Assembly: GCA_900551585.1 (NCBI GenBank)
Contig: URWU01000001.1
Coordinates: forward strand, 1-35,583
Origin: an uncultured Alphaproteobacteria bacterium
GTDB lineage: Bacteria > Pseudomonadota > Alphaproteobacteria > RF32 > CAG-239
Reading direction: 5' to 3'
DNA length: 35,583 bases
The position numbers and the translations under genes are program-made. Of this stretch, positions 2,853 through 35,583 are shown one piece after another. A model generated the notes under the pieces. It was not told where the DNA came from, ran no database searches, and saw nothing but the letters and a program-made list of their open reading frames with translations. How positions within the stretch are numbered: position 1 is the first letter of the stretch; each line of letters starts with the position of its first letter.

Positions 2853-2881
2853 TTGCACAAAACGCTGTTTTATGCTATAAT
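2853..2881 (+). promoter_or_regulatory. sigma70-like promoter TTGCAC-N17-TATAAT upstream of the giant flagellin-family gene
   Basis: TTGCAC at 2853-2858, a 17-nt spacer, and TATAAT at 2876-2881, about 44 nt upstream of the ATG at 2925. Confidence 0.5.
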
Positions 2882-2924
2882 TTTACTTAGGACAGCAGGC
2901 TAACAACGTGTGTGGGAATCAAGA

Positions 2925-4922
2925 ATGATTAATACAAGCCTCAACAGCCCGATGACAATGAATCTGCTTAATTTACAATCTATTACCCAAGAGCAGGCTT
3001 CGGTGCAGCAGAAATTAGCAACCGGTTTGAAGGTCTCTTCTCCCCTGCATAATCCCAATGCATATTATACCGCCATCACCCTGCACAGCCAGGCTCAGGA
3101 GCTCAACAGCTTTATGGACGCGCTCGGCCAGTCGGTACAGGCGCTGAAAAATATTGATAATACCATCAACACCGGCATTAATTTTCTGGAGCAGGCTCTG
3201 GCAACGGCCCGCGTGGCTCTGGGCAACCTCATTAATAACGGCGGTTCGGCTCCGGTTCCGACACCTCCCGATAATGATATTACGCCGACACCGCCAACGC
3301 CCGGCAGCTCGGAAGTAACCCGCACCGATTTGGAAAACATCATGAAAGACAAAGGAATCAGCGGAAAGGTCGTGACCAATCAGGCAGAATTCATTGAGGC
3401 CGTCAACAATGCCGCAGCCGGAGACACTATTGCCATTCTCGGCAAAATCGATTTTTACAATGCCAGTTTTGATTTGAGCAACATAACAATCACCGGCGCC
3501 GACGGGCTTATCCGCAAACACGGGCTGGAGGATCAGTATTATGTCAAAGAAAGCGACCGCGCCGTTCTGAATTTCAGGATCGACGGCAGCGGCGACCATT
3601 CGGGCTTTGTGACCAAAAATAATGTGGCCGTTTCCGACCTGGCTCTTAATTACGAAGTTGAAACCAGCAGCAACGCCATCACCTATCAGATGATTACCAA
3701 CAGCGGTATTCTTGATTTGGAAAATGTCAGCATCTCCTTAAAAAGTGACAACAGGACCAGCGTTTATAATGATTTGATTGAAAATATCGACCGCGGCGCT
3801 ACAAATATTAAAGGCAAGGTCAATATTGATACCAATGATAACCGGACGTATATTTTCCATAACAGCTATTTCGGCCAGGTTATTCTTGATAAAGACGCAA
3901 CGCTTAATGTTGTCACCAAAGGCGATGCCGTCACAGTTTTTGACGGCGGCAAAATCGAGCTTTACGGCACCTTAAATGCCAATGCCGACGCTAATAATTT
4001 TACGCTTATGGATTATGGAAACAACATTATCGGCGGCCGGATAAATATTAATTCTCTTTTCAAATCCAGTTTTGGTTTAGGCGGCCGCAGCAACATCACC
4101 CTGTTGTCTACGGCGGATATCCGTATCAATACCGGAAGTTTTGCAGGCACGGCTTTTTCTTCAGGTTTTAAAATCAAATGGGAAAGCGGCGCTCAAATTA
4201 CATCCAATGAAACAACCAACTGGAAAGCCGGAAGCAGCGGCAATGCGGTTCCGGCAACTGATATCTTTTTCCAGGGCAGTCAGGATTTGAGCGCAATTTT
4301 AGGCTGGAACAAATCCGCCGTCAGAGTTTCGTTGACGGCACCCTCTTCCAAACCGCAAACTTCAGCCGAAAACGAGCTGCTTGATTATCTGAAGAAAGAA
4401 ACCGAAGAACTGACCAGTCAACAAAAAGCAATTTCTCTTGAAGCCGCAGCCAACCGTTATAACAGTATTTTAGATTACTACAATAACTTAATCGGAACCA
4501 ACAGCTATCTGAGTAAAAATCTGCTGCAAGACGATACAATGACGGTTAAATTCAGCACCGGAAAAGACAACAGGCTTGATATTAAGGGCCGCAATATCCA
4601 ATATGAGAAGCTCGGTCTCAATCAGGCCAACTGGGAAAAAGTTGCCGATATTGAAAAAAGCATAGATGAAGTGCAAAATGCTCTGGCCGACCTGCGCCGG
4701 CAAGGGCGCGAGTTCAGCAACTATAACAGCATTATTACCAGCCGTGATGATTTTATGGGAACTTTGTCAAATATCCTGACCGAGGGCGCCGACAAACTGA
4801 CTTTGGCCGATGTCAATGAAGAATCGGCAAATATGCTGGCTCTCAGCAGCCGCCAAATGCTGGCGACAAACGCGCTTTCTCTGGCGGCGCAGTCCAGCCG
4901 TTCCATTCTGTCCTTATTCTAA
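2925..4922 (+). CDS. Flagellin-family protein (665 aa) with ~370-aa central insertion (Pro/Thr linker plus putative parallel beta-helix domain)
   Basis: The track ORF 2910..4922 starts at GTG. The in-frame ATG at 2925 gives MINTSLNS..., a flagellin-like N-terminus. N-terminal QKLATGLKVSSPLHNPNAYYTAITLHSQAQELNS and C-terminal ILTEGADKLTLADVNEESANMLALSSRQMLATNALSLAAQSSRSILSLF align with the three flagellins at 30.4-35.5 kb. The central region has no counterpart in those genes. Confidence 0.85.
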   Translation: MINTSLNSPMTMNLLNLQSITQEQASVQQKLATGLKVSSPLHNPNAYYTAITLHSQAQELNSFMDALGQSVQALKNIDNTINTGINFLEQALATARVALGNLINNGGSAPVPTPPDNDITPTPPTPGSSEVTRTDLENIMKDKGISGKVVTNQAEFIEAVNNAAAGDTIAILGKIDFYNASFDLSNITITGADGLIRKHGLEDQYYVKESDRAVLNFRIDGSGDHSGFVTKNNVAVSDLALNYEVETSSNAITYQMITNSGILDLENVSISLKSDNRTSVYNDLIENIDRGATNIKGKVNIDTNDNRTYIFHNSYFGQVILDKDATLNVVTKGDAVTVFDGGKIELYGTLNANADANNFTLMDYGNNIIGGRININSLFKSSFGLGGRSNITLLSTADIRINTGSFAGTAFSSGFKIKWESGAQITSNETTNWKAGSSGNAVPATDIFFQGSQDLSAILGWNKSAVRVSLTAPSSKPQTSAENELLDYLKKETEELTSQQKAISLEAAANRYNSILDYYNNLIGTNSYLSKNLLQDDTMTVKFSTGKDNRLDIKGRNIQYEKLGLNQANWEKVADIEKSIDEVQNALADLRRQGREFSNYNSIITSRDDFMGTLSNILTEGADKLTLADVNEESANMLALSSRQMLATNALSLAAQSSRSILSLF

Positions 4923-4926
4923 AAAA

Positions 4927-5685
4927 TCAACTCATAAAAGAGCGAATCGAATTTTTCATTTCGGCAATATCGACATCGCGGCCGAGACGGTGGTTGCTGC
5001 CTTTTATCAGTTTGACAATCACGTCTTCACTTTGCAGGCACTTCAACAATTTGAACGGTTTTTGCGGATCAAGGTTTTTGTCCTCCGTTCCGTGAATGAT
5101 ATGAACCGGACAATGCACAGCCAGCGGGCTTTCAAGGAGCAGGTTTTCTCCGGCAGTCTCAAACATTTTCTGAGTGAAAACATAAGTAAAATCTTTCATC
5201 GGAAACAGGCATTTGCCTTTTTCTGCCATTTCGGCTTTGTTCTCCGGCGTGAAAACAAATCTTTCCATATCATAGGTGAAATCCGGCGCCGGCGCCAAGC
5301 CAATCACACCGGCAGCCCGCTGCGGCCGTTCGCGGGCTGCTATCAAACTCAGCCAGCCGCCGATTGATGAGCCGATATATAAAATTTTGCCGGCAATCAT
5401 TTCATCTGTCACTTCTAAAAGCTGCTCTTTCCAAGTATTGAAATCAACCTGTTCATAGCTGTCAATATCCGAGCCGTGGCCGGCCAGTTCGAATCGGAAA
5501 AACGGAATATTCTGTTCTTCACAGAAAGTTTTAATTTCTTCCGGCTTGCGTCCCCAAGGGTCGGAATAGAGGCCATGGACGTAAACGACGGTAAAATCAG
5601 GGCTATTTTTGTTAGTTTCGCAAGAATTTGCTTGGCTGAATTCAAAATTGGTTGTAAATTGCGATTTAAATGTGTGACTTGGCAT
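4927..5685 (-). CDS. alpha/beta-fold hydrolase (serine esterase/lipase-like)
   Basis: Nucleophile elbow GSSIGG, with upstream VVYVHGL and downstream HG..D..L segments. I place the start at the internal ATG 5685 (MPSHTFKSQ...), which has a GGAG SD about 10 nt upstream. The longer track ORF (to 5826) would overlap the divergent glycosyltransferase gene. The stop is only 4 nt from the stop of the convergent flagellin-family gene. Confidence 0.8.
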   Translation of the reverse strand: MPSHTFKSQFTTNFEFSQANSCETNKNSPDFTVVYVHGLYSDPWGRKPEEIKTFCEEQNIPFFRFELAGHGSDIDSYEQVDFNTWKEQLLEVTDEMIAGKILYIGSSIGGWLSLIAARERPQRAAGVIGLAPAPDFTYDMERFVFTPENKAEMAEKGKCLFPMKDFTYVFTQKMFETAGENLLLESPLAVHCPVHIIHGTEDKNLDPQKPFKLLKCLQSEDVIVKLIKGSNHRLGRDVDIAEMKNSIRSFMS

Positions 5686-5732: not shown

Positions 5733-6887
5733 ATGAGTAAAGGTAAAGATAAAAACCCGGTAATTTTACAAGTGCTGCCCGAGTTGGAGACAGGCGGTCT
5801 GGAAGTCGGTACGGTGGAAATGGCAACCGAACTGCAAAAACAGGGAATCAAAAATTTTGTCGCCTCCAAAGGCGGCCGCATGGTTTATGACCTGGATAAA
5901 ATCAAGGTCAAACATTTTACTCTGCCCTTAAAAAGCAAAAATCCTTTTACTATCTGGAAAAATGTCAGCCGTTTGGAAAAAGTCATTAAAGAAAACGGTG
6001 TTAATATTGTTCATGCCCGCTCGCGCGCTCCGGCCTGGAGTGCCTATTGGGCAGCCAAACGCGCAGGCGTGCATTTTGTCACCACTTTCCACGGTACTTA
6101 CGGCCTCGGCCCCTGGGGTTTGAAAAAAGCTTATAACAAGATTATGACTTTCGGCGAAAAAGTGATTGCAATTTCAACGCATATTAAAAATCATCTGCTG
6201 CAAAATTATAAAATCGACGAGAAGAATATCCGCCTGATTCACCGCTGCGCCGATATTGAGCGTTTTGCTCCCGAACTGGTCACTCAGGAAAGAATGATTA
6301 ATAAAATCAAAGAATATAACATTGCCGATGACAAGCCGGTTCTGCTGCTGCCCGGCCGCGTGACCCGCTGGAAAGGACAGCATCTTCTGATTGAAGCCCT
6401 GTCCAAAATGAAAAACCAGAACTACTACTGCATTATCACCGGCGACAGTCAGGGACGTCAGAAATATGTCGACTATCTGCACGAGCTGACCCGTCAATAT
6501 AAACTTGAAAACCGTATCGGCTTTTTCGGCCGCTACAGCGATGTGCCGGCTTTGATGATGGTTTCCAACGTGGTATTGTCAACGGCAATCGAGCCGGAAG
6601 CTTTCGGCCGCATTTCCGTTGAAGGACAGGCCATGGGTAAAATCGTCGTCGCCTCAAATATCGGCGGCTCGCTTGATACGCTTGAAGACGGCAAAACCGG
6701 CAAGCTTTATCAATTTGACGACCCGCAGGCTTTGGCCGATGCTTTGGACTGGGCATTAAACCTCTCCGAAGCAGAAAAAGCCAAAATCGGCAAAGCGGCG
6801 ATTAAAAATGTCAGAGAAAATTTTACAAAACAAATTATGTGTGATAAGACTATTGAAGTGTATAAAGAATTGCTTAATTCCAATTAA
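5733..6887 (+). CDS. GT4-family (group 1) glycosyltransferase
   Basis: N-terminal PELETGGLEVG and C-terminal EPEAFGRISVEGQAMGKIVVASNIGGSLDTLEDGKTG (E-x7-E region) are typical of retaining GT-B/GT4 enzymes. ATG at 5733 is preceded by AGGAAGA. The track start 5670 is an upstream over-extension. Confidence 0.85.
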   Translation: MSKGKDKNPVILQVLPELETGGLEVGTVEMATELQKQGIKNFVASKGGRMVYDLDKIKVKHFTLPLKSKNPFTIWKNVSRLEKVIKENGVNIVHARSRAPAWSAYWAAKRAGVHFVTTFHGTYGLGPWGLKKAYNKIMTFGEKVIAISTHIKNHLLQNYKIDEKNIRLIHRCADIERFAPELVTQERMINKIKEYNIADDKPVLLLPGRVTRWKGQHLLIEALSKMKNQNYYCIITGDSQGRQKYVDYLHELTRQYKLENRIGFFGRYSDVPALMMVSNVVLSTAIEPEAFGRISVEGQAMGKIVVASNIGGSLDTLEDGKTGKLYQFDDPQALADALDWALNLSEAEKAKIGKAAIKNVRENFTKQIMCDKTIEVYKELLNSN

Positions 6888-11923: not shown

Positions 11924-13027
11924 TCAGTCCTTTAATTTAACAAAATTACCGTTTTCATATATTTGCACAGAAGGTTTATTTCTAACCAGCCCCTGTTTAT
12001 CAACGTCGAATTTTCCAACAGCTCCTTTCCATTGGCGGATAGATTTAATTTTTTGAATAACATCTTTATTATATGGGAATGTCTCTCCGGGATGAACGGG
12101 AGTATTTTCATAAGCCCAAATAAACATATCTAAATTATCGTAAGAATTTGCAGTACAAGAATTCGGTTCTGTTCCTGTTATTTTTTTGAATTCACTTTTA
12201 AATTCTTCGCTGCCATCTTCACCTCGAACAAACCATTGTCCTTCAATAAGAGGTAAAATATCTGAACTCAGTTCGGCAAAATTCCAAACTGTTGTTAATT
12301 TTCCGGAGGGTTTCATTTCCATAAATTGTTTAACAAAAATATCCATTCCCGGTGCACCCATTTGCATAATGTAATAATCTGGATTTTTCTGCTCTGCTTT
12401 TGTAATTATCATTCGGTAATCTTTCATATCCGCATTAGTTTTTATATAATCAGTCACTTCCAAACCATGAGTCGAAAAATATTCCTGCAAATAATCTCCC
12501 AAATTAACATTGGCATTCCCATTTAAAATAATCAGTGCAATCTTTTGTGCATGATGTTTTTTTAATTCCTTAGTTAAAAGTTCAGCATAATCTTCATTAG
12601 CTGTTTCATTACAAATTGCCAATGGGGGTAATTTGCCTTTTCCCAAGGTACAAGACATACTTATTACATTATTTTTATCAGCTATTTCATCAACAACGCG
12701 ATCAACCGTTCCCCAGATTGAAAGAATCGCTTTAACCCCATCAATATTAATGAAGCGATTGGCATTTAATGCGGCTTGTTGAAATTTTACCATATCATCG
12801 GAAAAAATTAGCTTGTAATTGTATTTAGTATCCTGTTTCTGCCATTTTTGCAATACCATCATCATGGCTTCTTTACTCATATTTCCAAATATCGCAGCAT
12901 CTCCGCTTAAGGGCAGCGTTGCGCCAATTTTGACAATCGGTTTGGTGCTAACGGCGTTATCTTCCTTTTTGTCACAGGCTGAAAGCATCATTGCTGCTGC
13001 ACAAATTATAGATAAATACTTTTTCAT
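11924..13027 (-). CDS. ABC transporter substrate-binding lipoprotein (type I periplasmic binding fold, Leu/Ile/Val-binding family)
   Basis: Signal peptide with lipobox MLSAC, then VKIGATLPLSGDAAIFG, which is typical of LivJ/K-like binding proteins. Noticeably AT-richer than the neighbouring permease genes. Confidence 0.85.
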   Translation of the reverse strand: MKKYLSIICAAAMMLSACDKKEDNAVSTKPIVKIGATLPLSGDAAIFGNMSKEAMMMVLQKWQKQDTKYNYKLIFSDDMVKFQQAALNANRFINIDGVKAILSIWGTVDRVVDEIADKNNVISMSCTLGKGKLPPLAICNETANEDYAELLTKELKKHHAQKIALIILNGNANVNLGDYLQEYFSTHGLEVTDYIKTNADMKDYRMIITKAEQKNPDYYIMQMGAPGMDIFVKQFMEMKPSGKLTTVWNFAELSSDILPLIEGQWFVRGEDGSEEFKSEFKKITGTEPNSCTANSYDNLDMFIWAYENTPVHPGETFPYNKDVIQKIKSIRQWKGAVGKFDVDKQGLVRNKPSVQIYENGNFVKLKD

Positions 13028-16093: not shown

Positions 16094-18235
16094 CTATCTC
16101 GTATGTTTGGCATTGAGAATCAGACGGGTAATTTTATTATTATCCGGATGGGTTTGCAGCTTATATTCCTGATAACGGCTATAGGCTTGTGACCAGGCAA
16201 TTTGCTCTTCGCTCATTTTTTCCAGAGCATCACAATAGGCCAGCTGGTCGGCATGGTCGAGGGCGCATTTATCATAAAACACGGCAAGATTTTTTTGCAG
16301 CGGCGTTATGCCTTTTTCGGAAATCTGCCGCTCAAGCCCTTCCAGCAGCTGCTTTTGATAGCCCTTGGCCGCCGAAACGATAAAGTCGGTTGTTGATTGC
16401 GGATAGTCCATCTGGCGGACAGCCTCCTTAACCAGGATATTAAAATCATTTTGATTGAACTCTCTTTGCTGATAGAGCGGCATAATCACTTCCGAAATAC
16501 ATAAATCTTCAATTGCCGTCTGCAATCTTTCCGGTGCTTTTTCATCAAGGCCCGGAAAAATCTCAAGACCTTCCTGCAGGTAATTTTTCAAATTTTCCCG
16601 CGGTTTATTTAGGGAAGCAATATTGCGGCGGCTGAAATTATGTTCAAAATCTGTGAGCATTTTTTCCTTATAATTTAAATCAACATCAAAAATACGCTCG
16701 GAAAACATAACAAATTTTTCTTTTTCGACACCGGGTTTTTCACGACTCAGTTTTTGCAGATAAGCATCGGCCGTGATATTTTGTTCGGCAGCCAGTTCTT
16801 CTTCCGTCAAATCCAGATAAGAGACATAAGCCTGACAATTTTTGGCATAGGCGGTAAAAATTGCGGCCATATTTTTCCAATCGGCCTCTTTTGCTCTTGC
16901 CGGATTTCTCAACAGGTGCTCAACATATTCTATATCATATCCCGAAGAATCCAGAACAATTCCATGGCCGCCTTCACTCTCGAGAAGTTTGAATTGTTCG
17001 CGACTCAACAGGCCGACCAGAATGACATCTTTGGCACAATCCAAAATTTCTTCAGGCGTCATGCTTTTTTGCAGATTGATTGCTGCCAGCTCTTGCAGAC
17101 AACGGGCAGATTTTCGTGATGTCTGCTGCCGCCAGCGTTTATAGCGGGCACCAAAATAATTTCTGACATCTTCAGACTGAATCCGGCGGCTGTCATAGCC
17201 TTCAAAAATCCGCGCTTCTTTTTTGTGGCGTTTATAATCTGCAGAAGTTTCCTGCTCAAGCCGGCGATAATCATAATCAGACAACAATTTGTTCATATCA
17301 TCCTGAGTAAATTCCAGCGCTGATAAAGGCGATGAACTAAATTCGTCTGCCGCCATTTCATTTTTTTGCCAGCTCCTGATATCGGCGATTGTCAGGGCTT
17401 CATAATCCTCAACGGCCTCGGCTGTTTCATGCAGGGCATTTTCAATATTTTTAATGCGGTTATAGCCGGGCTGAGCCGCGGATAAAATCTTTCTGACCTC
17501 AGGCAGGCTGCCACGCAAAGCATTTTGAAAATCGCTGTTTGACGTTACGGGAATTTGCATACGGCGGCAATTATCAAGCATAGTCAGGTATAAACCGCCG
17601 GAAGAGGCCTGCAAGGGCTTATCAAAAGCTTCCAGACAGCCCCAATAAATGCCGAGGTTAATATTCTCCGTTGATAACCCGGGTTCGTTATTATTTTTCA
17701 TCCTGGCGGCAATTGTCACATCAAGCTGTGCTTCTTGAACCTTTTTCCATAAATCTTCCTGCCAGTCGATATTCATATCAATCAGCGCCGTATTGGCGGC
17801 ATAAAGCGTCCGCTGCAGCCAATAAGCGCTCTTGGCGTCAAAATAGTCATCATTTCTGCCGTTGACATAATTCTGGGTTTTAATTAAATCTGTTGCAAAT
17901 TGCGGAGATGAAAGATTGAAACTTAACGGAATATCGCGAAAATGCGGATTGCGGTTCAGTTCTTCCGAAAGCTTGGGAATAAGAGATTCTGCCATGCCGA
18001 TTTTGTTATGGTGTTTCCGCAAAGACAAAACCGGCAGTTTTGCGCCGTAAAAGGCATTCAGCTCACCGGTCAGATTTATCAGTGCCGGAGCCGTCTCGCC
18101 AAGGCGCTCTATATAAACATCAAGGTCATCGGCACGAAGAATTTTGCGGTTTTTACCGGCCAGCATTTTCTCGGCATAAAACACAAAAGTTTTTATGACG
18201 GATTTGTATTCTTTTTCATTTTGAAAATTGAACAT
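16094..18235 (-). CDS. hypothetical protein, 713 aa, no recognisable domain
   Basis: Long uninterrupted ORF with no signal peptide or TM segment. A possible own promoter TTGACA-N17-TTATAT lies in the 74-nt gap after flgE. I recognise no family motif. Confidence 0.75.
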   Translation of the reverse strand: MFNFQNEKEYKSVIKTFVFYAEKMLAGKNRKILRADDLDVYIERLGETAPALINLTGELNAFYGAKLPVLSLRKHHNKIGMAESLIPKLSEELNRNPHFRDIPLSFNLSSPQFATDLIKTQNYVNGRNDDYFDAKSAYWLQRTLYAANTALIDMNIDWQEDLWKKVQEAQLDVTIAARMKNNNEPGLSTENINLGIYWGCLEAFDKPLQASSGGLYLTMLDNCRRMQIPVTSNSDFQNALRGSLPEVRKILSAAQPGYNRIKNIENALHETAEAVEDYEALTIADIRSWQKNEMAADEFSSSPLSALEFTQDDMNKLLSDYDYRRLEQETSADYKRHKKEARIFEGYDSRRIQSEDVRNYFGARYKRWRQQTSRKSARCLQELAAINLQKSMTPEEILDCAKDVILVGLLSREQFKLLESEGGHGIVLDSSGYDIEYVEHLLRNPARAKEADWKNMAAIFTAYAKNCQAYVSYLDLTEEELAAEQNITADAYLQKLSREKPGVEKEKFVMFSERIFDVDLNYKEKMLTDFEHNFSRRNIASLNKPRENLKNYLQEGLEIFPGLDEKAPERLQTAIEDLCISEVIMPLYQQREFNQNDFNILVKEAVRQMDYPQSTTDFIVSAAKGYQKQLLEGLERQISEKGITPLQKNLAVFYDKCALDHADQLAYCDALEKMSEEQIAWSQAYSRYQEYKLQTHPDNNKITRLILNAKHTR

Positions 18236-18309: not shown

Positions 18310-19527
18310 CTAAGTCTTCAGATTAACAAGCAGCTGCAGCATTTCATTCGTAGCCGTAAAGGAGCTGGAGTTTAATCCATAAGCCCGCTGGACAACCACC
18401 ATTTTGGTGAACTCGGTTTCGACATTGGCGGTTGAACGCTCTAAGGCCTGGCTCTTGATAAAATCTTTATTTGAATCGAGATAATAAGAATCGCCGGTCA
18501 GACCGTTTGCCTCAAACAAAGTACCGGAAACCGAAGTCAGATTATCAGGAGCCGAAAAACCGGTCAAAGCCAGTTTGGCAATATTTACCGTCTGACCGTT
18601 GCTGTAAGAAGCATAGACAATTCCTTCTTCACCGATGGCGCTGAATTTGAAATCGCCGCTTTCTTTACCGTCTTGTTTGACATCGGTAATACCGCTGCTG
18701 CCGTCATACTGGGTCATATTCTCAATATTCATGGCAATTGTATTGCTGCTGCCGTCATCCCAGGCAACATCTACCGTAAAGTCTTTCGGTGACAACAGTT
18801 TGCCGTCCTGCGAGAAAACAGCCTCTATCGGCTCGGCCGTTGTAACGGTTCCGCCATTGACATCAAAAGTGACGTTCCAGGTATTAACCTTGCCCTCAAC
18901 TTTGGTAAAGAGCATATTCATTGTTTCACCGTTATTATTGGGGCCGTAAATCGTAATTCCGTAACTGCTGGTATCTGCCCCCGAAGCCGGAACGTTTGCC
19001 GTAATCGAGGCTTTGGTTGTCGGGGTTGACGGAATTTTTTCCGGATAATTAATCACAATATCCGACGGAGAACCGCCAAAGCCGCCGCCTTCCAAAGCAG
19101 GAAAACCCTGCACGCGCAAACCGTTATTATTGACCAGATACAAACTGCCGTTGGTTGACATTGTTTTAAAATCGCCGGCGCGGGTGTAATAAACATCGCC
19201 GGAATAGCGGTCTTTCAAAGTGAAAAAAGCGTTGCCGGTACCGTTAATAGCAACGTCATAATTATTATTCGACGCCGTTACCTGACCCTGATGCGTTACA
19301 TTGGTGCGGTCATAATAACCAACGCCGTGGATATCTACCCGCGAAGAAGATATGCCGTCCTGACTGCCTTTAACGACAGGATTGGCTCCCAACAAGGTAT
19401 AAAACATCGTCTCACTGCTTTTATAGCCGACAGTGTTGATGTTGGCAATGTTTGTACCAACGGTTTCCAATGCGTGCGATTGAGCAGTCATACCGGTTGT
19501 CGAAGGCATGAACATACTTAAAGCCAT
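18310..19527 (-). CDS. flgE: flagellar hook protein FlgE
   Basis: N-terminal rod/hook motif (TGMTAQSHALETVGTNIANINTVGYKSSE), C-terminal motif (ALERSTANVETEFTKMVVVQRAYGLNSSSFTATNEMLQLLVNL), and ~405 aa, a hook-protein size. ATG at 19527 has GGGAG upstream. The track start 19623 is an over-extension. Confidence 0.82.
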   Translation of the reverse strand: MALSMFMPSTTGMTAQSHALETVGTNIANINTVGYKSSETMFYTLLGANPVVKGSQDGISSSRVDIHGVGYYDRTNVTHQGQVTASNNNYDVAINGTGNAFFTLKDRYSGDVYYTRAGDFKTMSTNGSLYLVNNNGLRVQGFPALEGGGFGGSPSDIVINYPEKIPSTPTTKASITANVPASGADTSSYGITIYGPNNNGETMNMLFTKVEGKVNTWNVTFDVNGGTVTTAEPIEAVFSQDGKLLSPKDFTVDVAWDDGSSNTIAMNIENMTQYDGSSGITDVKQDGKESGDFKFSAIGEEGIVYASYSNGQTVNIAKLALTGFSAPDNLTSVSGTLFEANGLTGDSYYLDSNKDFIKSQALERSTANVETEFTKMVVVQRAYGLNSSSFTATNEMLQLLVNLKT

Positions 19528-19565
19528 GATAAAAATCTCCCTAAAATTTATCTTATGAGAATATA

Positions 19566-25826: not shown

Positions 25827-25938
25827 TTTTAGTTTCGCTGCGTTTTTGTTACATTGCTGAAACCTTTTGTGTTTTGCAATCTTTTTGGTTTTACCCTACT
25901 ATCAGCCTCAGTTAAAACAACAATTGAGGATGACCAAT

Positions 25939-27099
25939 ATGACTAACAAACCTTCAAAACCGATTATGCTTTTCGACTGCAAAACTTCTCAGAGCGTTAT
26001 CGGCCAGGAAAAATTTTTAGACTCTTTCAAAACTATTTTGAACCACGGCGGTTATGCCCAGGGTCCCGAAACTCGTGAACTCGATGAAAAACTGGCTAAC
26101 TTTGCCGGCGCAAAATATTGCTCTACCTGCGGTTCCGGAACTGATGCCCTGACTTTGGCCCTGATGGCCTGGGACGTTAAAGCCGGTGACGCCGTATTTG
26201 TTTCTTCTTTCACTTTCGTTGCTTCTGCCGAAGCTCCGGTTTTGCTGGGCGCAACCCCGATTTTCGTTGACTCTGATCCGAACACTTACAACATGGATCC
26301 GAAAGATTTGCAGCGTGCTATTGATGAAGTTAAGAAAGAAGGCAAATTAAACCTCAAAGCCGTTATTGCCGTTGATATTTTCGGTTCTCCCTGCGATTAT
26401 GACGCAATCAACAAAATCGCTCATGCAAACGGCATGAAAGTTTTGTCTGATGCCTGCCAGTCTTTTGGTTCTGTTTACAAAGGCACCAAAACCGGTAATG
26501 TTACCGAAATGACCGCCATTTCTTTCTACCCGACCAAACCTCTGGGCTGCTATGGTGACGGCGGTGCTGTTTTCAGCAACACCAATGAAGAAAACGAACT
26601 GGTTAAATCCTGCCGCGTTCACGGTATGAGCCCGGAAGACCACTATGATAACGTTCGTCTCGGCATGACCGGCAGAATGAACACTTTCCAAGCTGCCGTT
26701 CTGTTGTTGAAATTGTCTGTTTTTGAACAGGAACTCAAAGACCGTTACAGAGTTGCCAGCCGTTATGATAACGAACTGAGCAATTATTTCAACAAACAGC
26801 AGATTTTAGACAACTGCCAGTCTGCTTATGCTTTGTACACCATTAACTGTGAAGACCGCGATGAACTGATGGCTTACCTCAAAGAAAACGGTATTCCCTG
26901 CGGCGCTTATTACCCGCGTCCGGTTCATACTCAAACCGCTTATGCTCAGTGGAATAATCGTCCGCTGCCGGTTTGCGAGAAACTGTCAAAGACTGTTCTG
27001 TCTATCCCGATGACTCCGTATCTTGATAACGAAGCTTTGGATTACATCATTGAGACAATGAACAACTTTGCCGCAAAAAAAATGAATAAAGCTGCTTAA
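25939..27099 (+). CDS. DegT/DnrJ/EryC1/StrS-family PLP-dependent sugar aminotransferase
   Basis: GSGTDALTLAL, DACQSFGS, and a catalytic-lysine context SFYPTKPLGCYGDGGAV. I prefer the ATG at 25939 (GAGG 9 nt upstream). ATG 25930 and the track start 25867 are alternatives. Confidence 0.9.
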   Translation: MTNKPSKPIMLFDCKTSQSVIGQEKFLDSFKTILNHGGYAQGPETRELDEKLANFAGAKYCSTCGSGTDALTLALMAWDVKAGDAVFVSSFTFVASAEAPVLLGATPIFVDSDPNTYNMDPKDLQRAIDEVKKEGKLNLKAVIAVDIFGSPCDYDAINKIAHANGMKVLSDACQSFGSVYKGTKTGNVTEMTAISFYPTKPLGCYGDGGAVFSNTNEENELVKSCRVHGMSPEDHYDNVRLGMTGRMNTFQAAVLLLKLSVFEQELKDRYRVASRYDNELSNYFNKQQILDNCQSAYALYTINCEDRDELMAYLKENGIPCGAYYPRPVHTQTAYAQWNNRPLPVCEKLSKTVLSIPMTPYLDNEALDYIIETMNNFAAKKMNKAA

Positions 27100-27194: not shown

Positions 27195-28343
27195 CTATTT
27201 TTTACTGCTGTTGCGTTTTTGGCGGGCAGCCAAGCCGTCATCAATATATTTTTTGATATTCGGACCGAAAGTTTGATGAATATAAACCGTCAATTCACTG
27301 GGCTTTTCAACATAAGCTTCCGCTTCGGTCTGAGCCTGCAGCAATTCTTCAATCTTCAAATTCTTTTCAAGAACATTACGGCGGTTGTCAGCGTCATCGG
27401 CACCGCGGACAGAAGCAACGTTAAACAGAATGTGCGCCTTATAAATGTTGCGGGGATATTTCTGACCGATTGCCAGAATATTACCGAGTTCCATCATGGC
27501 GTCAATATTGCCCTGAGCCATTGCTTTGTTCAATGCCTTGACCGCATTACCGTAGTTTTGCGGAGTTCCCCAGCCATTCATATACATCAGAGACAAAATG
27601 AACTGTGCGTCATCATAACCGGCATTGGCTGATTTTCTGATTAAATCAAAAGCATGGCGGAAATCTTTTTCAACAATATAGCCGCGGAAATAAGCATAAC
27701 CGAGCATAAAATTGGCGGTCGGATTATCACTCTCGGCGGCTTTTTCAAATAAATGTATCGCCTCTTCGGGATTTTGGACAATTCCCTGTCCCGAAAGATA
27801 AATAAAAGCCAGATTGACCATGGCTTCAACATTGCCGAGCTCGGCGGCTGCGGCAAACATTTTTGCGGCCATCAGCGGATTGCGCGGCGTGCCGATACCG
27901 CTGTAATATAAACTGCCGAGGTTGTTGATTGCGACATTGTCTTTGCGTTCTGCCGCCATTTTATAATAGTCAAAAGCTTTTTTGTGGTCGACAGAAACAC
28001 CGTCTTCACCATAGAGATACATATAGCCCAAAGTCAGCTGCGAATTGACGTCGCCCTCTGCGGCGGTTCGGGTCAGTTTTTGTAAAACCGTTTCGGTTGA
28101 GCCGGGCTCCACGGTTACTTCCGTTTTTTTCTTATCGCCCCAAAAATTGAGAAAAGAGAAAATGCCTTTATCTTCTTTTTTTGCAGCAACATCCGCTTTG
28201 TCTTCCGTTTCTTTTTTTTCTTCCTCTTTGGATGCCGGCGCCGCCAAAACTAAATCACCATCTAGTGACAAAACGGCTTCCTGAGCCTGAGCTAAAGATG
28301 TGGAAGCAAGCAGACTGAATAAAAACAAAGATAAGCGACGCAT
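27195..28343 (-). CDS. secreted Sel1-like repeat (SLR/TPR-like) protein
   Basis: ATG at 28343 gives MRRLSLFLFSLLASTSLAQAQE, a signal peptide with AQA cleavage. An acidic/Lys-rich linker follows, then about 7 repeats of the Sel1 pattern (A..L G.MY..G.GV..D...A..YY..AA). The GGAG SD overlaps the stop codon of the upstream gene. Confidence 0.85.
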   Translation of the reverse strand: MRRLSLFLFSLLASTSLAQAQEAVLSLDGDLVLAAPASKEEEKKETEDKADVAAKKEDKGIFSFLNFWGDKKKTEVTVEPGSTETVLQKLTRTAAEGDVNSQLTLGYMYLYGEDGVSVDHKKAFDYYKMAAERKDNVAINNLGSLYYSGIGTPRNPLMAAKMFAAAAELGNVEAMVNLAFIYLSGQGIVQNPEEAIHLFEKAAESDNPTANFMLGYAYFRGYIVEKDFRHAFDLIRKSANAGYDDAQFILSLMYMNGWGTPQNYGNAVKALNKAMAQGNIDAMMELGNILAIGQKYPRNIYKAHILFNVASVRGADDADNRRNVLEKNLKIEELLQAQTEAEAYVEKPSELTVYIHQTFGPNIKKYIDDGLAARQKRNSSKK

Positions 28344-28351
28344 TTTAACTC

Positions 28352-30184
28352 CTAACGAGTACAACCCTGAAACTTTCCCCAAGCTCTTTTGGCATTGTGC
28401 TTTTGAGCCTGACGTTGTTTATTATGATAATTTCTGCGGTTTTTATCAAGTGTTTTGTAAATATTTTTCTTTGACGGCCTATAACCGCCTTCCATCCGGC
28501 TCAAAACCTCTAATTCATCTCGGGTCGGAACATTGGTGTCAAGCGGCCGCTCATTCCAGGCATCTTGAGCAAAATGTTCTTTATTGGTCGAATGTTCCAG
28601 CGGCATGGCAAAGAAATGCGCTTCGCTGCCGGTAATGCGGCCATTATATTTTTCCATAATAAACGGGCTGTACCGCTCGGCGAAATCCTGAATCTGGTCA
28701 GAGGTGACCAACAGGCCGAGAGACTTTAACTCATCATCGGTCACATTGAATGCCTGACTCATATCAAAAGCCTTAAACGGGCGATACATAAAGTTTTTGC
28801 TAATGAAGTCAGCTACACCGCTGAAAATTTTTTCATTCTTGCGCGTTTGGCAGCTGTAAACTTCAGAATCAAACTTTTTGTCATTGGCCAGTTTGGCATC
28901 TTCAATACGGAAAGCCTTGTCCAAAACCTGCAGATTGTAGGCACGGATAGCTTCTTTGTTACGCTTTTGAATGGCCAGCTGCAATTTGAAAATATTCATT
29001 TTGGCAATCAGGCGATCGGCCGTTCCTTTGAAGCGTTTGAGATTTTCTTCCCAAAAGCGCAGCCCTTTTTTAGCGGTATGCTTAGATGTAATCAGCAAAA
29101 CATTATCATTGCGGCTTTCGGCATTTTCCTCGCCGGCATAAATCGCGTGCGTATCAATATCGCCCTCATAAAGCTTGGTGATTTTAATCTGGGTTTCAAC
29201 TTTGAAAGAATTGCCGTTGACCTTCATATTCAGATAAGCGCGTTTTTCACGGTAGTTTTTCTGATTATAAATTTTGCTGTCGCTGATATTTCCGTAAAAG
29301 CTGTCTTTAATCTCGGCAATGCTGACATTATACTGGCTGTCGTTTTTGAACATCTCAAGCGTTTCGACCGTATCCGTATAATATTTACGGGTAATCGTCA
29401 TACGGACCATATCTTTTAAGCGCTCATAAGGTTTCGGAAGCGCCGCAATTTCCTGCCGGACAGAAGCTTCTTCCGCAGCCAGGGCTTTGCGATACGCCCC
29501 GGTGTTTTCACCATATTTCAAGCGCAGGTCAGCTGTGTGTTTGAGGCGGATTTTAGCAGCATCATCACTATATTGTTTATAATATTTGCCGCCCTCTGAG
29601 ATAACTTTGCCGTTTTTATCCATTACCGGCATTTTGATTTTATCAATCGCACGGCGGATATTTTTCAATCCCGGCAAAATGACATAAACCGGATTATCGC
29701 GGAAATCATAAAAAGTCAGCCGCATATTGGTGAAAGGGGTAATATGTTTGGCGCGATATTCTTTATATTTTGACATATTATTATGGAAACCGCCAACCAT
29801 TTGGTTTTCTTCGACAATACCGGTATCCAAGTCTATCGCGTTAATCTCGTCCGGTGCCGGTTCTTCACCCAGCTCGGCAAGACGTTTTATCTTGTGCGGA
29901 CGATATTCTTTTAACAGCGTCGCGGTAATGTTTTTATATAATGTGCGGTAAGTTTCCATAGCATCGCCGTAGATTCCGCGCAGATAATCGGCGGCTTCCC
30001 GGTCAATCAATTTATTTTCTAAGGCTCTGTCAATATAGTTGAGGCTATATTCATTGAAGATATTCTGGATATTATCAATTTGTTCCGCTGTAAAATGCTC
30101 GATATCAGCAGCGGTGATTTTAATGTCTTCATCTTTGGCCAGAGCGGCTTTGACTCTGGATACTAATTCTTCGTATTCAGCCAT
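28352..30184 (-). CDS. hypothetical 610-aa protein with a possible RelA/SpoT-like nucleotidyltransferase core (tentative)
   Basis: Long clean ORF with no signal peptide or TM segment. Residues 213-349 carry RLKHTADLRLK ... DMVRMTIT ... NYREKRAYLNMKV ... FKVETQIKITKLYEGDIDTHAIY. This order and spacing is reminiscent of the RSH synthetase motifs (RxKxxxSxxxK ... GYRSxH ... ExQIRT-x10-H-xx-Y). The gene has its own promoter and is coupled to the Sel1 gene. Confidence 0.75.
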   Translation of the reverse strand: MAEYEELVSRVKAALAKDEDIKITAADIEHFTAEQIDNIQNIFNEYSLNYIDRALENKLIDREAADYLRGIYGDAMETYRTLYKNITATLLKEYRPHKIKRLAELGEEPAPDEINAIDLDTGIVEENQMVGGFHNNMSKYKEYRAKHITPFTNMRLTFYDFRDNPVYVILPGLKNIRRAIDKIKMPVMDKNGKVISEGGKYYKQYSDDAAKIRLKHTADLRLKYGENTGAYRKALAAEEASVRQEIAALPKPYERLKDMVRMTITRKYYTDTVETLEMFKNDSQYNVSIAEIKDSFYGNISDSKIYNQKNYREKRAYLNMKVNGNSFKVETQIKITKLYEGDIDTHAIYAGEENAESRNDNVLLITSKHTAKKGLRFWEENLKRFKGTADRLIAKMNIFKLQLAIQKRNKEAIRAYNLQVLDKAFRIEDAKLANDKKFDSEVYSCQTRKNEKIFSGVADFISKNFMYRPFKAFDMSQAFNVTDDELKSLGLLVTSDQIQDFAERYSPFIMEKYNGRITGSEAHFFAMPLEHSTNKEHFAQDAWNERPLDTNVPTRDELEVLSRMEGGYRPSKKNIYKTLDKNRRNYHNKQRQAQKHNAKRAWGKFQGCTR

Positions 30185-30399: not shown

Positions 30400-31803
30400 C
30401 TAGAATAGTTTCAAAACAGACTGAGCAGCCTGAGAAGCCAAACTCAAAGAGTTAATAGCCAATTGCTGTCTGGTCTGCAGAGCCAACATGTTTGCGGACT
30501 CTTCGTTCATATCGGCCAAGGTCAGTTTGTCAGCGCCTTCGGTCAATACGTTAATCAGGTTATCGGTAAATTCTTCACGGCTTTGAACAACCGAGTAGTT
30601 GTTACCGAAGTCAGATGCCATGGTACGCAGTTTGGAAACGGCGCCTTCAATATCGCTGATTGAGGTTTCGATATTGCTGTCTTTTTGCCAATCATTCTGA
30701 GCCTGAGAGATACCCAGACCTTTAGAAGAAGCATCAACACCGGTGATTTCAATCATTGAAGAACGGTCTTCGTTGAAGATGACTTTCAGGTCATTTTCCT
30801 GCAACAGGTTAATACCTTTATAGCCGGCATCATTTGCCAACTGGTCAATCTGATCCAGAATTTCGTTAAATTGTTTTGCATAACTCTTACGTTCTGCGGT
30901 AGGTGCTGTTGCGTCGCCGGCTTTGCGTGTTCCACCGAGACCCAAATCTTTCAGAGCATTTTGGTTAGCATTGGTACTGTCGGCAAAAATACGGAATTCT
31001 TTTCCGGTTGCGGTAACAGACAAAGCTTTACCATCTGCAGCGGCTTTAACTCCTAAATCGGTTTCAGCAGCGGCATTAATAGCAGAAGCAATGGTTGCGG
31101 AGTTAGCACCTTTAGCTGCATCTAAAGTTACAACTTTGGCGGCCTCTGTTGCAGTGGCAATACCATTGGTTGCATCGTTGACATAAGAGACAGCGGAACC
31201 GTCAGTTGTTGAAACGGTGATTGTTGCGCCGGTTGCGTCAGCTTTGGCATTCAAACCCATACCCTGCAACTGATTAATGGCATCATTGGCAACTGCTTTT
31301 TCGTCAGCGGCACCAGCAGCCAGAGTAATTTCCTTTTGGGTTCCGTCTGCTAAATAAATTGTGAATTTTTTGCCTTTGTCAGCAGCCACAAAAGTCATAT
31401 CAAATGTGCTTAAATCATCACGGGCATCAACGATGATATCGCCGGTTACCGGAGTTTTTACTTCATTTGAAGTAATTGCATATTTATCAAAGTTACCGGA
31501 AACATCGCGTGCGGAGTTTGCAATAGCTTTGGCCTGCTCGGCAAAAGAGGTAATTGTTTTAATCGCTTCGTCAGCCGCCTTAATGGTTTGAATACCCTGA
31601 CCCATGCTATCCAGCAAAGAGCTAAGGTCATTCGCGCGGTTGTTTAACGATTGTGCGGTATAATAGGAAGAAGGGTTATCGATAGCCGAGTTAACCTTCT
31701 TTCCGGTGGAGAGGCGTTCTTGCGTCATGTCCATCAGACTCTGAGTGGACTGTAACGATAACAAGTTCGAACGCATGCTCGCTGTAAGTGAAATATCTGC
31801 CAT
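30400..31803 (-). CDS. fliC: flagellin (paralogue 1, 467 aa)
   Basis: MADISLTASMRSNLLSLQSTQSLMDMTQERLSTGKKVNSAIDNPSSYYTAQSLNNRANDL N-domain and ...TEGADKLTLADMNEESANMLALQTRQQLAINSLSLASQAAQSVLKLF C-domain. ATG at 31803 has GGAG upstream. The track start 31815 is a TTG over-extension. Confidence 0.92.
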   Translation of the reverse strand: MADISLTASMRSNLLSLQSTQSLMDMTQERLSTGKKVNSAIDNPSSYYTAQSLNNRANDLSSLLDSMGQGIQTIKAADEAIKTITSFAEQAKAIANSARDVSGNFDKYAITSNEVKTPVTGDIIVDARDDLSTFDMTFVAADKGKKFTIYLADGTQKEITLAAGAADEKAVANDAINQLQGMGLNAKADATGATITVSTTDGSAVSYVNDATNGIATATEAAKVVTLDAAKGANSATIASAINAAAETDLGVKAAADGKALSVTATGKEFRIFADSTNANQNALKDLGLGGTRKAGDATAPTAERKSYAKQFNEILDQIDQLANDAGYKGINLLQENDLKVIFNEDRSSMIEITGVDASSKGLGISQAQNDWQKDSNIETSISDIEGAVSKLRTMASDFGNNYSVVQSREEFTDNLINVLTEGADKLTLADMNEESANMLALQTRQQLAINSLSLASQAAQSVLKLF

Positions 31804-31869
31804 TTTTTTCTCCAATACTTTGGAATATTATCTTGCTGTCGTTGTACTGACGCAGCAAGTCGTTGTACA

Positions 31870-31897
31870 AAATCCGACACCCTTTTGAGTGCCTTTA
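31870..31897 (-). promoter_or_regulatory. conserved upstream motif TAAAGGCA-N11-GTCGGATTT (candidate flagellin promoter, sigma28-like at best)
   Basis: Shared with the region upstream of flagellin 2 (AAAAGGCA-N10-GCCGGATTT), and partly with flagellin 3 (GCCGGACTT at the window edge). Resembles, but does not match, TAAA-N15-GCCGATAA. Confidence 0.3.
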
Positions 31898-32107
31898 ACT
31901 ATTTTTAATACCATATCAGTAAATAAATAGTTAACTGCAAAAATAAGTTTTTCAACGAGTCGCAAACTGTTTATCTGCCTGCTTGTCTGACTGAAATACT
32001 CTCTGCATAAAATTATTATAGACGCTAATATATTAAAATTTTGATAATGAGAAATATTGTTGAATGAAAAACGGCAAATTTTACCGGAACTGACTAATGA
32101 TAATTAA

Positions 32108-32140
32108 GCTGAGATGTTTCGACAAGCTCAACATGACAAT
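32108..32140. repeat. degenerate copy of the REP-like element
   Basis: GCTGAGATGTTTCGACAAGCTCAACATGACAAT, compared with GCTGAGATCCTTCGACTACGCTCAGGATGACAAA at 15969-16002. The ATCCT/AGGAT stem is replaced by ATGTT/AACAT. Confidence 0.6.
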
Positions 32141-32222
32141 GTTGCTATATTGTTTGACTGGTTTCTTCACGAAGCACTGCGTATCCGTTCAGAATAACGT
32201 GTGTGGCTGTATGGACTATAAG

Positions 32223-32256
32223 GCTGAGATCCTTCGGCTTCGCTCAGGATGACAAT
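32223..32256. repeat. copy of the REP-like element
   Basis: GCTGAGATCCTTCGGCTTCGCTCAGGATGACAAT, differing from the 16-kb copies only in the loop and the last base. Confidence 0.8.
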
Positions 32257-32320
32257 AAAATGCTCAGGATGACAATAAAGTACTCAAGGGGACAATAAAA
32301 ATATTCAGGGCGGCATACAT
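32241..32320. repeat. 20-bp tandem repeat (about 4 units, progressively degenerate) derived from the 3' half of the REP-like element
   Basis: Units CGCTCAGGATGACAATAAAA / TGCTCAGGATGACAATAAAG / TACTCAAGGGGACAATAAAA / ATATTCAGGGCGGCATACAT, in exact 20-nt register. Confidence 0.7.
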
Positions 32321-32323
32321 AAT

Positions 32324-32351
32324 AAAAAAGCTCCCGGGAAAACCCGGGAGC
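32324..32351 (-). terminator. rho-independent terminator after flagellin 2
   Basis: GCTCCCGGG / CCCGGGAGC perfect stem with an AAAA loop. The A6 run on the plus strand is a T6 run on the minus strand. Confidence 0.8.
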
Positions 32352-32376
32352 CTGATATTCAATCGTTGATTAGCGA

Positions 32377-33765: not shown

Positions 33766-33838
33766 TTTCTTTCTCCAATACTTTGGAACACATTAACTTG
33801 TGAATGTTCTACTAACATTACAAGTTTTATATTAACAC

Positions 33839-33870
33839 AAATCCGGCACCTAATCAATGCCTTTTTTAAA
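33839..33870 (-). promoter_or_regulatory. conserved upstream motif AAAAGGCA-N10-GCCGGATTT (candidate flagellin promoter)
   Basis: Same motif pair as upstream of flagellin 1, at a similar distance (about 70-75 nt) from the ATG. Confidence 0.3.
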
Positions 33871-34019
33871 GATAAAATTCCCTTTACAAATCTATTTAAG
33901 CCTTAAGCATTGATTTTACAGCATTTACTATACTAAAGTCTTATATAAATTCGTTTACCCATATATCTATTGTCTATCTTATAAGATAAAGTGTTAATTT
34001 TTTGATAACAAAAAAAGCT

Positions 34020-34052
34020 CCCGGACAAAGTATTCCGGGAGCTGTAAGAGAA
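34020..34052 (-). terminator. rho-independent terminator after flagellin 3
   Basis: GCTCCCGGA / TCCGGGAGC stem. The A7 run on the plus strand is a T7 run on the minus strand. Confidence 0.8.
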
Positions 34053-34065
34053 AGAAAATTTGTTC

Positions 34066-35469: not shown

Positions 35470-35583
35470 TTCTTTCTCTTCCCCAATACTGTGGAACACA
35501 CACCTGCAACTTTTTACTTTTGGGCAGGTTTTAAGTTATAAACTTTTGAGCCTTTATATTTATTTGCAAGTCCGGCTCTGAAC

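Follow-up and report, generated by a model that had tools for sequence, protein, structure and literature searches.

The 35,583-nucleotide stretch of DNA analyzed here, referred to as the window (contig URWU01000001.1 of GenBank assembly GCA_900551585.1, positions 1–35,583 of the forward strand), comes from an uncultured alphaproteobacterium (RF32; CAG-239) and contains, at positions 2925–4922, a gene for a flagellin-family protein that is distinct from the canonical flagellins encoded in the same window. The termini of this protein are homologous to those of the canonical flagellins, and its variable region appears to be replaced by a ~345-residue predicted β-helix of ~11 coils that would be ~5 nm long. 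The protein is proposed, with a probability of roughly 55%, to be a specialized minor flagellin that displays the β-helix as an outer domain on the filament and is controlled separately. The original prediction for this gene, made from the sequence alone, called the protein a giant flagellin; this label is wrong, as the protein has 665 residues and the published class of giant flagellins exceeds 1000 (PMC6248924).

The Flagellin Core

The two ends of the protein are those of a flagellin. In BLASTP comparisons with the canonical flagellin encoded at 32377–33765 on the minus strand, residues 5–98 share 43% identity (E 6e-19) and residues 509–665 share 45% identity (E 3e-38), as expected from the original claim that both ends align with the canonical flagellins of the window. 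The stretch LTEGADKLTLAD[V/M]NEESANMLAL, shared by the target and the canonical flagellin, is a genuine match. The center of the protein (nt ~3240–4349, ~370 residues), on the other hand, gives no significant alignment to the ~205-residue canonical variable region and is ~1.8 times as long, which agrees with the earlier description of a variable region about twice the length of, and unrelated to, its canonical counterparts. Similar to the canonical flagellin, the target has no cysteine and no signal peptide. The start codon at ATG 2925 is supported by the N-terminal M-x-N-x-SLNS that the homologues share, and in locus L003 the GTG that lies upstream of it (2910 in the window) is not in frame.

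Searches of family and structure databases place the protein within the flagellins. The only NCBIfam models that match the target are flagellin subfamily models (PRK12688, E 1e-28), and a PDB search with a profile built from five close homologues recovers flagellins only, at E values from 4.7e-14 to 4e-9 (Flagellin A 7sn9 at E 4.7e-14, and Caulobacter FljK/L/M/N). A hook–filament junction protein of the FlgL/HAP3 type, or another axial protein, would also carry flagellin-like D0/D1 helices, as FlgL does, and canonical flagellins themselves match FlgL weakly. The target, however, has no match to the FlgL equivalog model (TIGR02550) at E ≤ 0.1, and the exclusive recovery of flagellins by the profile, together with the 45% identity across the C-terminal 157 residues, makes such an assignment highly improbable. 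The profile and NCBIfam matches, combined with the missing FlgL match, support the flagellin-family paralogue that had been proposed.

The target falls below the Pfam gathering thresholds for both flagellin families, scoring 16.1 bits for Flagellin_N (cut-off 26.6) and 17.8 bits for Flagellin_C (cut-off 23). Since more distant members of the family (P0011, P0016, P0017, P0021, P0013, and P0020) pass these thresholds, the low scores of the target reflect divergence of its subclade rather than membership in a different family. Among orthologues the termini are also the best conserved part of the protein: identity to P0002 and P0003 is 83–85% at the N-terminus and 74–75% at the C-terminus, compared with 44–53% in the center. 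This far greater conservation of the termini is indicative of purifying selection on D0/D1.

The Central Domain Is a Predicted β-Helix

The structure of the central domain was modeled with AlphaFold2. In the model of the full-length target, residues 125–400 have predicted local distance difference test (pLDDT) scores of 85–97 and are all β; the termini of this model have pLDDT values of 30–50 and were not used to orient D0/D1 relative to the helix. Modeling of residues 123–482 with a 16-sequence family alignment gives a mean pLDDT of 91.3 and a predicted template modeling score (pTM) of 0.90. The domain model begins with an α/β N-terminal cap that carries the GDTI motif, present as the original prediction described it, and continues with ~30 short strands, which we read as ~11 three-stranded coils in a domain of ~345 residues. 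In a Foldseek search of the PDB with this domain, the best 50 matches are all right-handed parallel β-helices, including exopolygalacturonase 3jur, pectate lyase A, PL6 alginate lyases, phage tailspikes, and Ag43. The annotated matches in BFVD are mostly tailspikes, tail fibers, and pectate-lyase-like or right-handed β-helix proteins. The model scores and the uniform class of the PDB matches support the β-helix insert that had been suggested.

No comparable relationship is detected at the level of sequence. A search of the PDB with the center, either as a single sequence or as a 16-sequence profile, gave no credible relative, and Pfam searches, covering 4 and then 16 members at permissive E values, gave no match to a β-helix family for the target at E ≤ 10 or for the 16 members at E ≤ 1. 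The target likewise has no match to the hidden Markov models of Beta_helix, NosD, Pectate_lyase_3, and Pectate_lyase_5, so the families that had been named as candidates (Beta_helix, Pectate_lyase_3, and NosD) find no counterpart in its sequence. The single link is that of one distant family member, P0016, which matches PF20585, a 'pectate lyase-like adhesive domain', at E 0.0054, which is below the cut-off. Isolated, sub-threshold matches of the center to ThiI_fer, sarcoglycan, and similar families were rejected as chance.

The domain is joined to the flagellin core by two linkers of different character. The Pro/Thr-rich linker of the original prediction is present on the N-terminal side, where APVPTPPDNDITPTPPTPGSS is found at residues 109–129. 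This linker, modeled as disordered, is Pro-rich in P0001–P0012, although its sequence is not conserved, and more distant members have no Pro-rich linker. On the C-terminal side, ~13 low-confidence residues lie between the end of the domain and the C-terminal D1 helices. The two ends of a β-helix are at opposite poles, whereas insertion into the D1 hairpin requires both chain ends to be near the core. By arithmetic, the 23-residue N-terminal linker would span ~7 nm (~3.1 Å per residue) and the 11 coils ~5.3 nm (4.8 Å per coil), a length that would let the linker double back along the rod. The domain's C-terminal end runs almost straight into the C-terminal D1 helix, and the cap is tethered via the Pro/Thr linker; the β-helix would therefore be expected to extend away from the filament surface, cap outermost.

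A Recurrent Architecture at a Conserved Locus

The gene encoding the β-helix flagellin is judged, from sequence comparison, to be real and maintained, given its syntenic orthologues and the ~34 cluster representatives of like architecture described below. A word-indexed search retrieved only four relatives (98, 62, 57, and 37% identity; 661–666 aa), all of them in Logan assemblies. Intact syntenic orthologues are present at these same identities, together with P0006 (40% over the central domain), each placed between the RND operon and the hydrolase. Searching exhaustively with a profile of the central domain retrieved 39 cluster representatives. About 34 of these have, in proteins of 580–700 aa, flagellin termini (N-terminal, C-terminal, or both) that belong to the same subfamily, indicating a recurrent architecture rather than a one-off fusion. 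The MBG_2 repeat proteins P0015 and P0023 were rejected as homologues, as many short stretches of these proteins match one segment of the profile, in the manner of a repeat or compositional match. Scanning of the GTDB species genomes with central-domain patterns found no relative, and neither the species of the window nor its β-helix flagellin is thus in that collection.

The domain also occurs outside flagellins. In P0022, P0036, and P0037 (e.g., L094 8001–9866) the β-helix domain is present and the flagellin termini are absent; these proteins have a signal-peptide-like hydrophobic N-terminus, followed by a ~300-residue region containing 33–39 cysteines, before the β-helix domain. The domain is consequently a module that is shared between flagellins and proteins that look Sec-secreted, which is evidence of its movement from one type of protein to the other.

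At every locus inspected, the β-helix flagellin gene is solitary among housekeeping genes. The orthologues of the window's gene in L001, L003, L091, and L095 lie between a resistance-nodulation-division (RND) efflux operon and a block comprising the hydrolase, the GT4 glycosyltransferase, and threonyl-tRNA synthetase (ThrRS); only the RND side is visible on the short contig L002. The original prediction had the gene flanked by the GT4 glycosyltransferase and the hydrolase. Both genes are present, but both are downstream, and the upstream neighbor is a divergent RND membrane-fusion gene. The nearest GTDB species by ThrRS (91, 87, 86, and 79% identity) are uncultured alphaproteobacterial metagenome-assembled genomes; one of them is labeled 'uncultured Azospirillum sp.', and a 71% relative comes from yak rumen. 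The GT4–ThrRS adjacency is kept in all four of the nearest ThrRS relatives (L007–L010), with the hydrolase also present in L007 and L009, and the flagellin was not found in the 2.9–6 kb of upstream DNA examined in these four. A functional link to the GT4 glycosyltransferase and hydrolase, such as flagellin glycosylation, was rejected because the adjacency persists in these relatives with no flagellin in that stretch of upstream DNA, and the context noted in the original prediction is coincidental. The distribution of the β-helix flagellin gene points to either its loss or its insertion within the host lineage.

Transcription and Control

The β-helix flagellin gene is 25.5 kb from the array of canonical flagellin genes (30400–35499, minus strand), in line with the ~25 kb noted originally, and its upstream region differs from theirs. 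Two promoter elements precede the gene. The −35 element reads TTGCAC, TTGCAT, TTGCCT, TTGCCT, and TTGTAT in five homologous loci, and the −10 element is TATAAT in three of these, TATGAT in L091, and TACACT in L002, with the TG of the extended −10 kept in all five. Single matches to a consensus promoter are common in this AT-rich region (10 found vs 4.4 expected), and for that reason it is conservation across loci that provides the evidence for a real promoter of the σ70 type: TTG-N20-TGnTATAAT is retained in the five loci, amid intergenic DNA that has otherwise diverged and at protein identities of 98% down to 37%. The near-consensus TTGCAC-N17-TATAAT promoter of the original prediction stands in part. 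Both elements are present and conserved, with a 17-nt spacer; however, of the 6 positions of TTGACA the −35 shares only 3 in the N17 register, leaving the −10, with its TGn extension, as the strong element and the only one at consensus.

The short leader contains a conserved block, GTGTGTGGG (2908–2916), in which GTGTG-G is invariant in the five loci. The leader does not fold significantly (z = +0.5), the leaders of three loci fold no better than shuffled sequences, and a search of Rfam gave no known RNA element in the vicinity. Conservation within the intergenic region is highest in a separate block, TTTAAATAATGGGCTTAAAAGCTAATTCAATAGG (2741–2774), within which GCTAATTCAAT is invariant in five loci. 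This block is 32–65 nt upstream of the divergent RND membrane-fusion gene and reads TTGAAT-N16-TATTTA on the minus strand, so that it probably serves the efflux operon, as promoter or operator, and not the control of the flagellin gene.

The canonical flagellins are encoded by three tandem genes at 30400–35583 on the minus strand, the third of which is cut by the window end. Their upstream regions were compared for two of the three genes, as the upstream DNA of the third is beyond the window end. These two genes share TAAA-N15-GGTG[TC]CGGATTT, with exact matches only at 31870–31881 and 33839–33850, and the motif is tentatively regarded as σ28-like from its sequence. A σ54 reading of the motif (GGCAC-N5-...) was rejected, there being no TTGC element at the right spacing. 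The canonical leaders (31804–31862 and 33766–33832) each contain two hairpins (z = −4.9 and −3.5). The stem of the first hairpin is kept by compensatory differences between the two genes, and in the second hairpin UUCC pairs with the GGAG Shine-Dalgarno sequence. The gene encoding the β-helix flagellin has neither the σ28-like motif nor either leader hairpin. The original statement that its promoter is unlike the motif of the other flagellin genes accordingly holds for the two canonical genes whose upstream DNA is within the window.

The leader hairpins of the canonical genes may form a translational control element, possibly one targeted by FlbT/FlaF. Post-transcriptional control of flagellin by FlaF/FlbT is established in Caulobacter. 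A FlaF (PF07309) gene is found on the conspecific contig L095 (170–547, minus strand), 8 kb upstream of the β-helix flagellin gene and just outside the window, which suggests that this organism has post-transcriptional flagellin control of the FlaF/FlbT type. The β-helix flagellin gene appears to be outside both layers of canonical flagellin control. A housekeeping-type promoter of its own, with an extended −10, would drive its transcription, and in view of this promoter and of the missing σ28-like motif and structured leader, the supply of the protein is probably regulated separately from that of bulk flagellin.

Proposed Function and Alternatives

The β-helix flagellin most likely leaves the cell through the flagellar type III apparatus and is polymerized into the filament, given that its D0/D1 core is homologous to the canonical flagellins of the window, and it probably co-polymerizes with the three canonical flagellins. 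The nature of the outer domain was assessed from conservation in a 16-member alignment. Columns that are at least 60% conserved contain Gly, Asn, Ile/Leu/Val/Phe, Ala, and Trp, which is the signature of a β-helix scaffold. Conservation of charged residues is restricted to D238 and to two positions of the N-terminal cap, E155 and D167, and in the middle coils none of the acidic or basic residues is kept across the 16 members. A regular-expression scan of the target found none of the motifs of PL1 (WxDH, RxPxxR) or GH28 (NTD, DD, GHG, RIK), and there is no HEXXH in its sequence and no peptidase domain reported by Pfam. Because only Gly, Asn, and hydrophobic scaffold positions are conserved throughout the family, the outer domain would be a non-enzymatic surface, adhesion, or glycan-binding module. 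The original prediction had allowed for an enzymatic or an adhesive domain; the enzymatic part finds no conserved catalytic signature, and a structural or adhesive role is, by a modest degree of confidence, the favored one.

Several observations weigh against a filament-borne, non-enzymatic protein with a β-helix outer domain. The individual Foldseek matches in the PDB are weak (best E 3.4e-3, TM ≤ 0.38), so that assignment of the fold class rests on the prediction and the uniform type of the matches, and the linker geometry is arithmetic only. Five close homologues share invariant E202, D203, H312, Y315, and D454, including an invariant LED motif at residues 201–203, and these polar residues may be compatible with a clade-specific active site. 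Finally, the termini of the target and its close relatives are the most divergent of the family from canonical flagellin (42–45% identity), while more distant β-helix flagellins keep 60–70% terminal identity; such divergent termini could reflect relaxed or altered constraints on polymerization.

The invariant residues bear on the alternative that the protein is an enzymatic flagellin, in which the filament would carry a β-helix polysaccharide lyase or glycoside hydrolase in many copies, by analogy with the flagellinolysins, and a gut bacterium would cut mucus or dietary glycans while swimming. Enzymatic flagellins are on record (PMC7643111), and the top fold matches include 3jur (probability 0.97), pectate lyase A 1jrg/1ooc (TM 0.34–0.38), and PL6 alginate lyases. 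The adhesin β-helices of Ag43, PfbA, and SRRP match at similar scores, however, and the center has no sequence match to any Pfam or PDB enzyme family. With no GH28 or PL1 motif and no conserved charge in the middle coils of the 16 members, an enzymatic role is considered rather improbable.

The divergent termini, together with their scores below the Pfam thresholds, bear instead on the alternative that the protein is a secreted substrate that functions outside the filament, wherein D0/D1 would serve mainly as export/chaperone signals and the β-helix would be released as a soluble adhesin or effector. Such a role of the termini is reported for Campylobacter FlaC. This alternative would also accommodate an orphan gene with its own σ70-type promoter and no flagellin-type leader, as well as the flexible Pro-rich tether, which is atypical of tightly packed outer domains. 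The target nevertheless retains full-length D0 and D1, more than an export signal needs, and no other part of the protein varies so little among orthologues; the more distant members have near-canonical termini (60–70% identity) and pass Pfam. Release as a secreted substrate is consequently regarded as unlikely, and incorporation into the filament remains the preferred reading.

Features and Neighboring Genes

Table 1. Coordinates of the β-helix flagellin gene, its control elements, and its downstream neighbors in the window.
Feature	Position	Strand	Basis or remark
−35 element TTGCAC	2853–2858	+	TTG conserved, remainder variable
Extended −10 element TGcTATAAT	2873–2881	+	TG 2873–2874, TATAAT 2876–2881
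Conserved GTGTGTGGG block, short 5′ untranslated region	2908–2916	+	Directly 5′ of weak Shine-Dalgarno sequence
Coding sequence, β-helix flagellin, including stop codon	2925–4922	+	ATG start, 665 aa
N-terminal flagellin D0/D1 helices, residues 1–104	2925–3236	+	Identity to canonical flagellin; helices 10–32 and 44–104 in model
Pro/Thr-rich linker, residues 105–127	3237–3305	+	pLDDT < 50
Predicted right-handed parallel β-helix outer domain, residues 128–472	3306–4340	+	AlphaFold2, Foldseek, family profile search
Short return linker, residues 473–485	4341–4379	+	Low pLDDT
C-terminal flagellin D1/D0 helices, residues 486–665	4380–4919	+	Profile positions 486–666 align to Caulobacter FljK residues 87–270
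Mosaic tract	4406–4536	+	33 of 54 nt differences from conspecific contig L095 fall here
Hydrolase (α/β)	4927–5685	−	Downstream neighbor
GT4 glycosyltransferase	5733–6887	+	Downstream neighbor

The conspecific contig L095 is 98.7% identical to the window overall at the nucleotide level, and the differences within the β-helix flagellin gene are concentrated in the mosaic tract listed in Table 1. This 131-bp tract codes for the start of the C-terminal D1 helix (residues ~494–538) and resembles a patch acquired from a diverged allele by recombination or gene conversion; the canonical flagellin genes were ruled out as its donor. A second region of difference is at 11935–12893, in the middle of a gene for the periplasmic substrate-binding protein of a branched-chain amino-acid-type ABC transporter. 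This segment has no blastn alignment to L095 and looks like a hypervariable or replaced allele.

Additional genes were noted in the surroundings of the flagellar genes. An aminotransferase similar to DegT/PseC (25867–27099, plus strand; TIGR03588 PseC, E 5e-66, below cut-off) is encoded 3 kb from the flagellin array and may function in a nonulosonic-acid or amino-sugar pathway for flagellin glycosylation. Immediately downstream of the array, on the same strand, are a 610-aa open reading frame (ORF) with no family match and a gene for a Sel1-repeat protein, which overlap by 31 bp and together occupy 27195–30184 (minus strand). Directly downstream of flgE (18310–19530) is a 713-aa ORF (16094–18235, minus strand) that has no Pfam or NCBIfam match and may be an unrecognized flagellar component. 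A 715-aa ORF with no recorded Pfam match occupies the same flgE-adjacent position in L003; the two are likened by position, not by sequence.

Relation to Known Systems and Implications

Flagellin outer domains are increasingly viewed as carriers of adhesion, enzymatic activity, and immune evasion. To our knowledge, nearly all structural and functional work on outer domains concerns Ig-like or Salmonella-type domains. The multi-flagellin systems of the alphaproteobacteria, represented by Caulobacter FljJ-O, 7sn9, and PRK12688/PRK14708, have D0/D1 sequences of the same type as the present protein and several flagellin paralogues per genome, and the FlaF regulator is found in the conspecific contig. 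The Caulobacter flagellins, however, have no outer domain (270–273 aa), and PRK12688-type flagellins have an unrelated variable region. In contrast to the members of multi-flagellin arrays, the present gene is outside the array and has neither its promoter motif nor its leader hairpins. The central domain is similar in fold class, and in its Asn/Gly-rich coil scaffold, to Ag43, PfbA, the binding region of L. reuteri SRRP, and the P22 tailspike, which bind glycans or surfaces outside the cell. These proteins have no sequence relationship to the present domain and are exported by type V secretion, by Sec with sortase anchoring, or through phage assembly, none of which involves insertion into a flagellin.

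A β-helix as a flagellin outer domain is an idea already on record. A cluster of pectate-lyase-like outer domains (#35) was reported in a one-line remark of an AlphaFold survey, in which the passage on this cluster gives no further analysis and names a small PL3 lyase of C. bescii as the comparator (PMC11532411). The present family, set beside cluster #35 by description only, likewise combines a conserved D0/D1 core with a predicted pectate-lyase-like outer domain, and both are known from predictions alone. As far as that brief description allows comparison, the two differ in that the C. bescii PL3 structure (3t9g) matches the present domain only marginally (rank 50, E 1.5), and that the present family has a larger, ~345-residue helix, an orphan gene position, and, in one subclade, a Pro-rich tether.

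Foreign or enlarged inserts in the hypervariable region of flagellins are also known. The flagellinolysins carry an HEXXH metallopeptidase domain in this region (PMC7643111). The present protein resembles them in having a complete foreign domain that would be displayed in many copies, but differs in its fold and in having no HEXXH and no catalytic signature. The giant flagellins of Bermanella and Oleibacter exceed 1000 aa and form filaments, which indicates that an enlarged hypervariable region with a large insert is compatible with filament assembly (PMC6248924). The present protein shares the enlarged region, although it is shorter, at 665 aa, and its insert is unrelated.

The locus described here turns a one-line survey remark into a concrete, well-modeled family with ~34 clusters, conserved synteny, distinct control signals, and non-flagellar secreted carriers. 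Should the protein prove to be part of the filament, it would represent a natural multivalent display of a rigid ~5 nm binding or cleaving rod on a rotating filament, probably in a gut bacterium, and would be a useful scaffold for engineered flagellar display. Should it not, it would add a new example of secretion through the flagellar export apparatus. A broader and more speculative proposal, to which we assign a low likelihood, is that these proteins form a widespread, unrecognized class of 'orphan' flagellins whose hosts are uncultured alphaproteobacteria, probably gut-associated, and other bacteria. In such a class, a β-helix module exchanged with Sec-secreted, Cys-rich surface proteins would have been grafted into the flagellin core on a proline tether, under housekeeping-type control that is decoupled from a FlaF/FlbT-type checkpoint. 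If this were true, the flagellar apparatus would serve to display or secrete a rod that binds or cleaves glycans, and the filament would gain a second function independent of motility.

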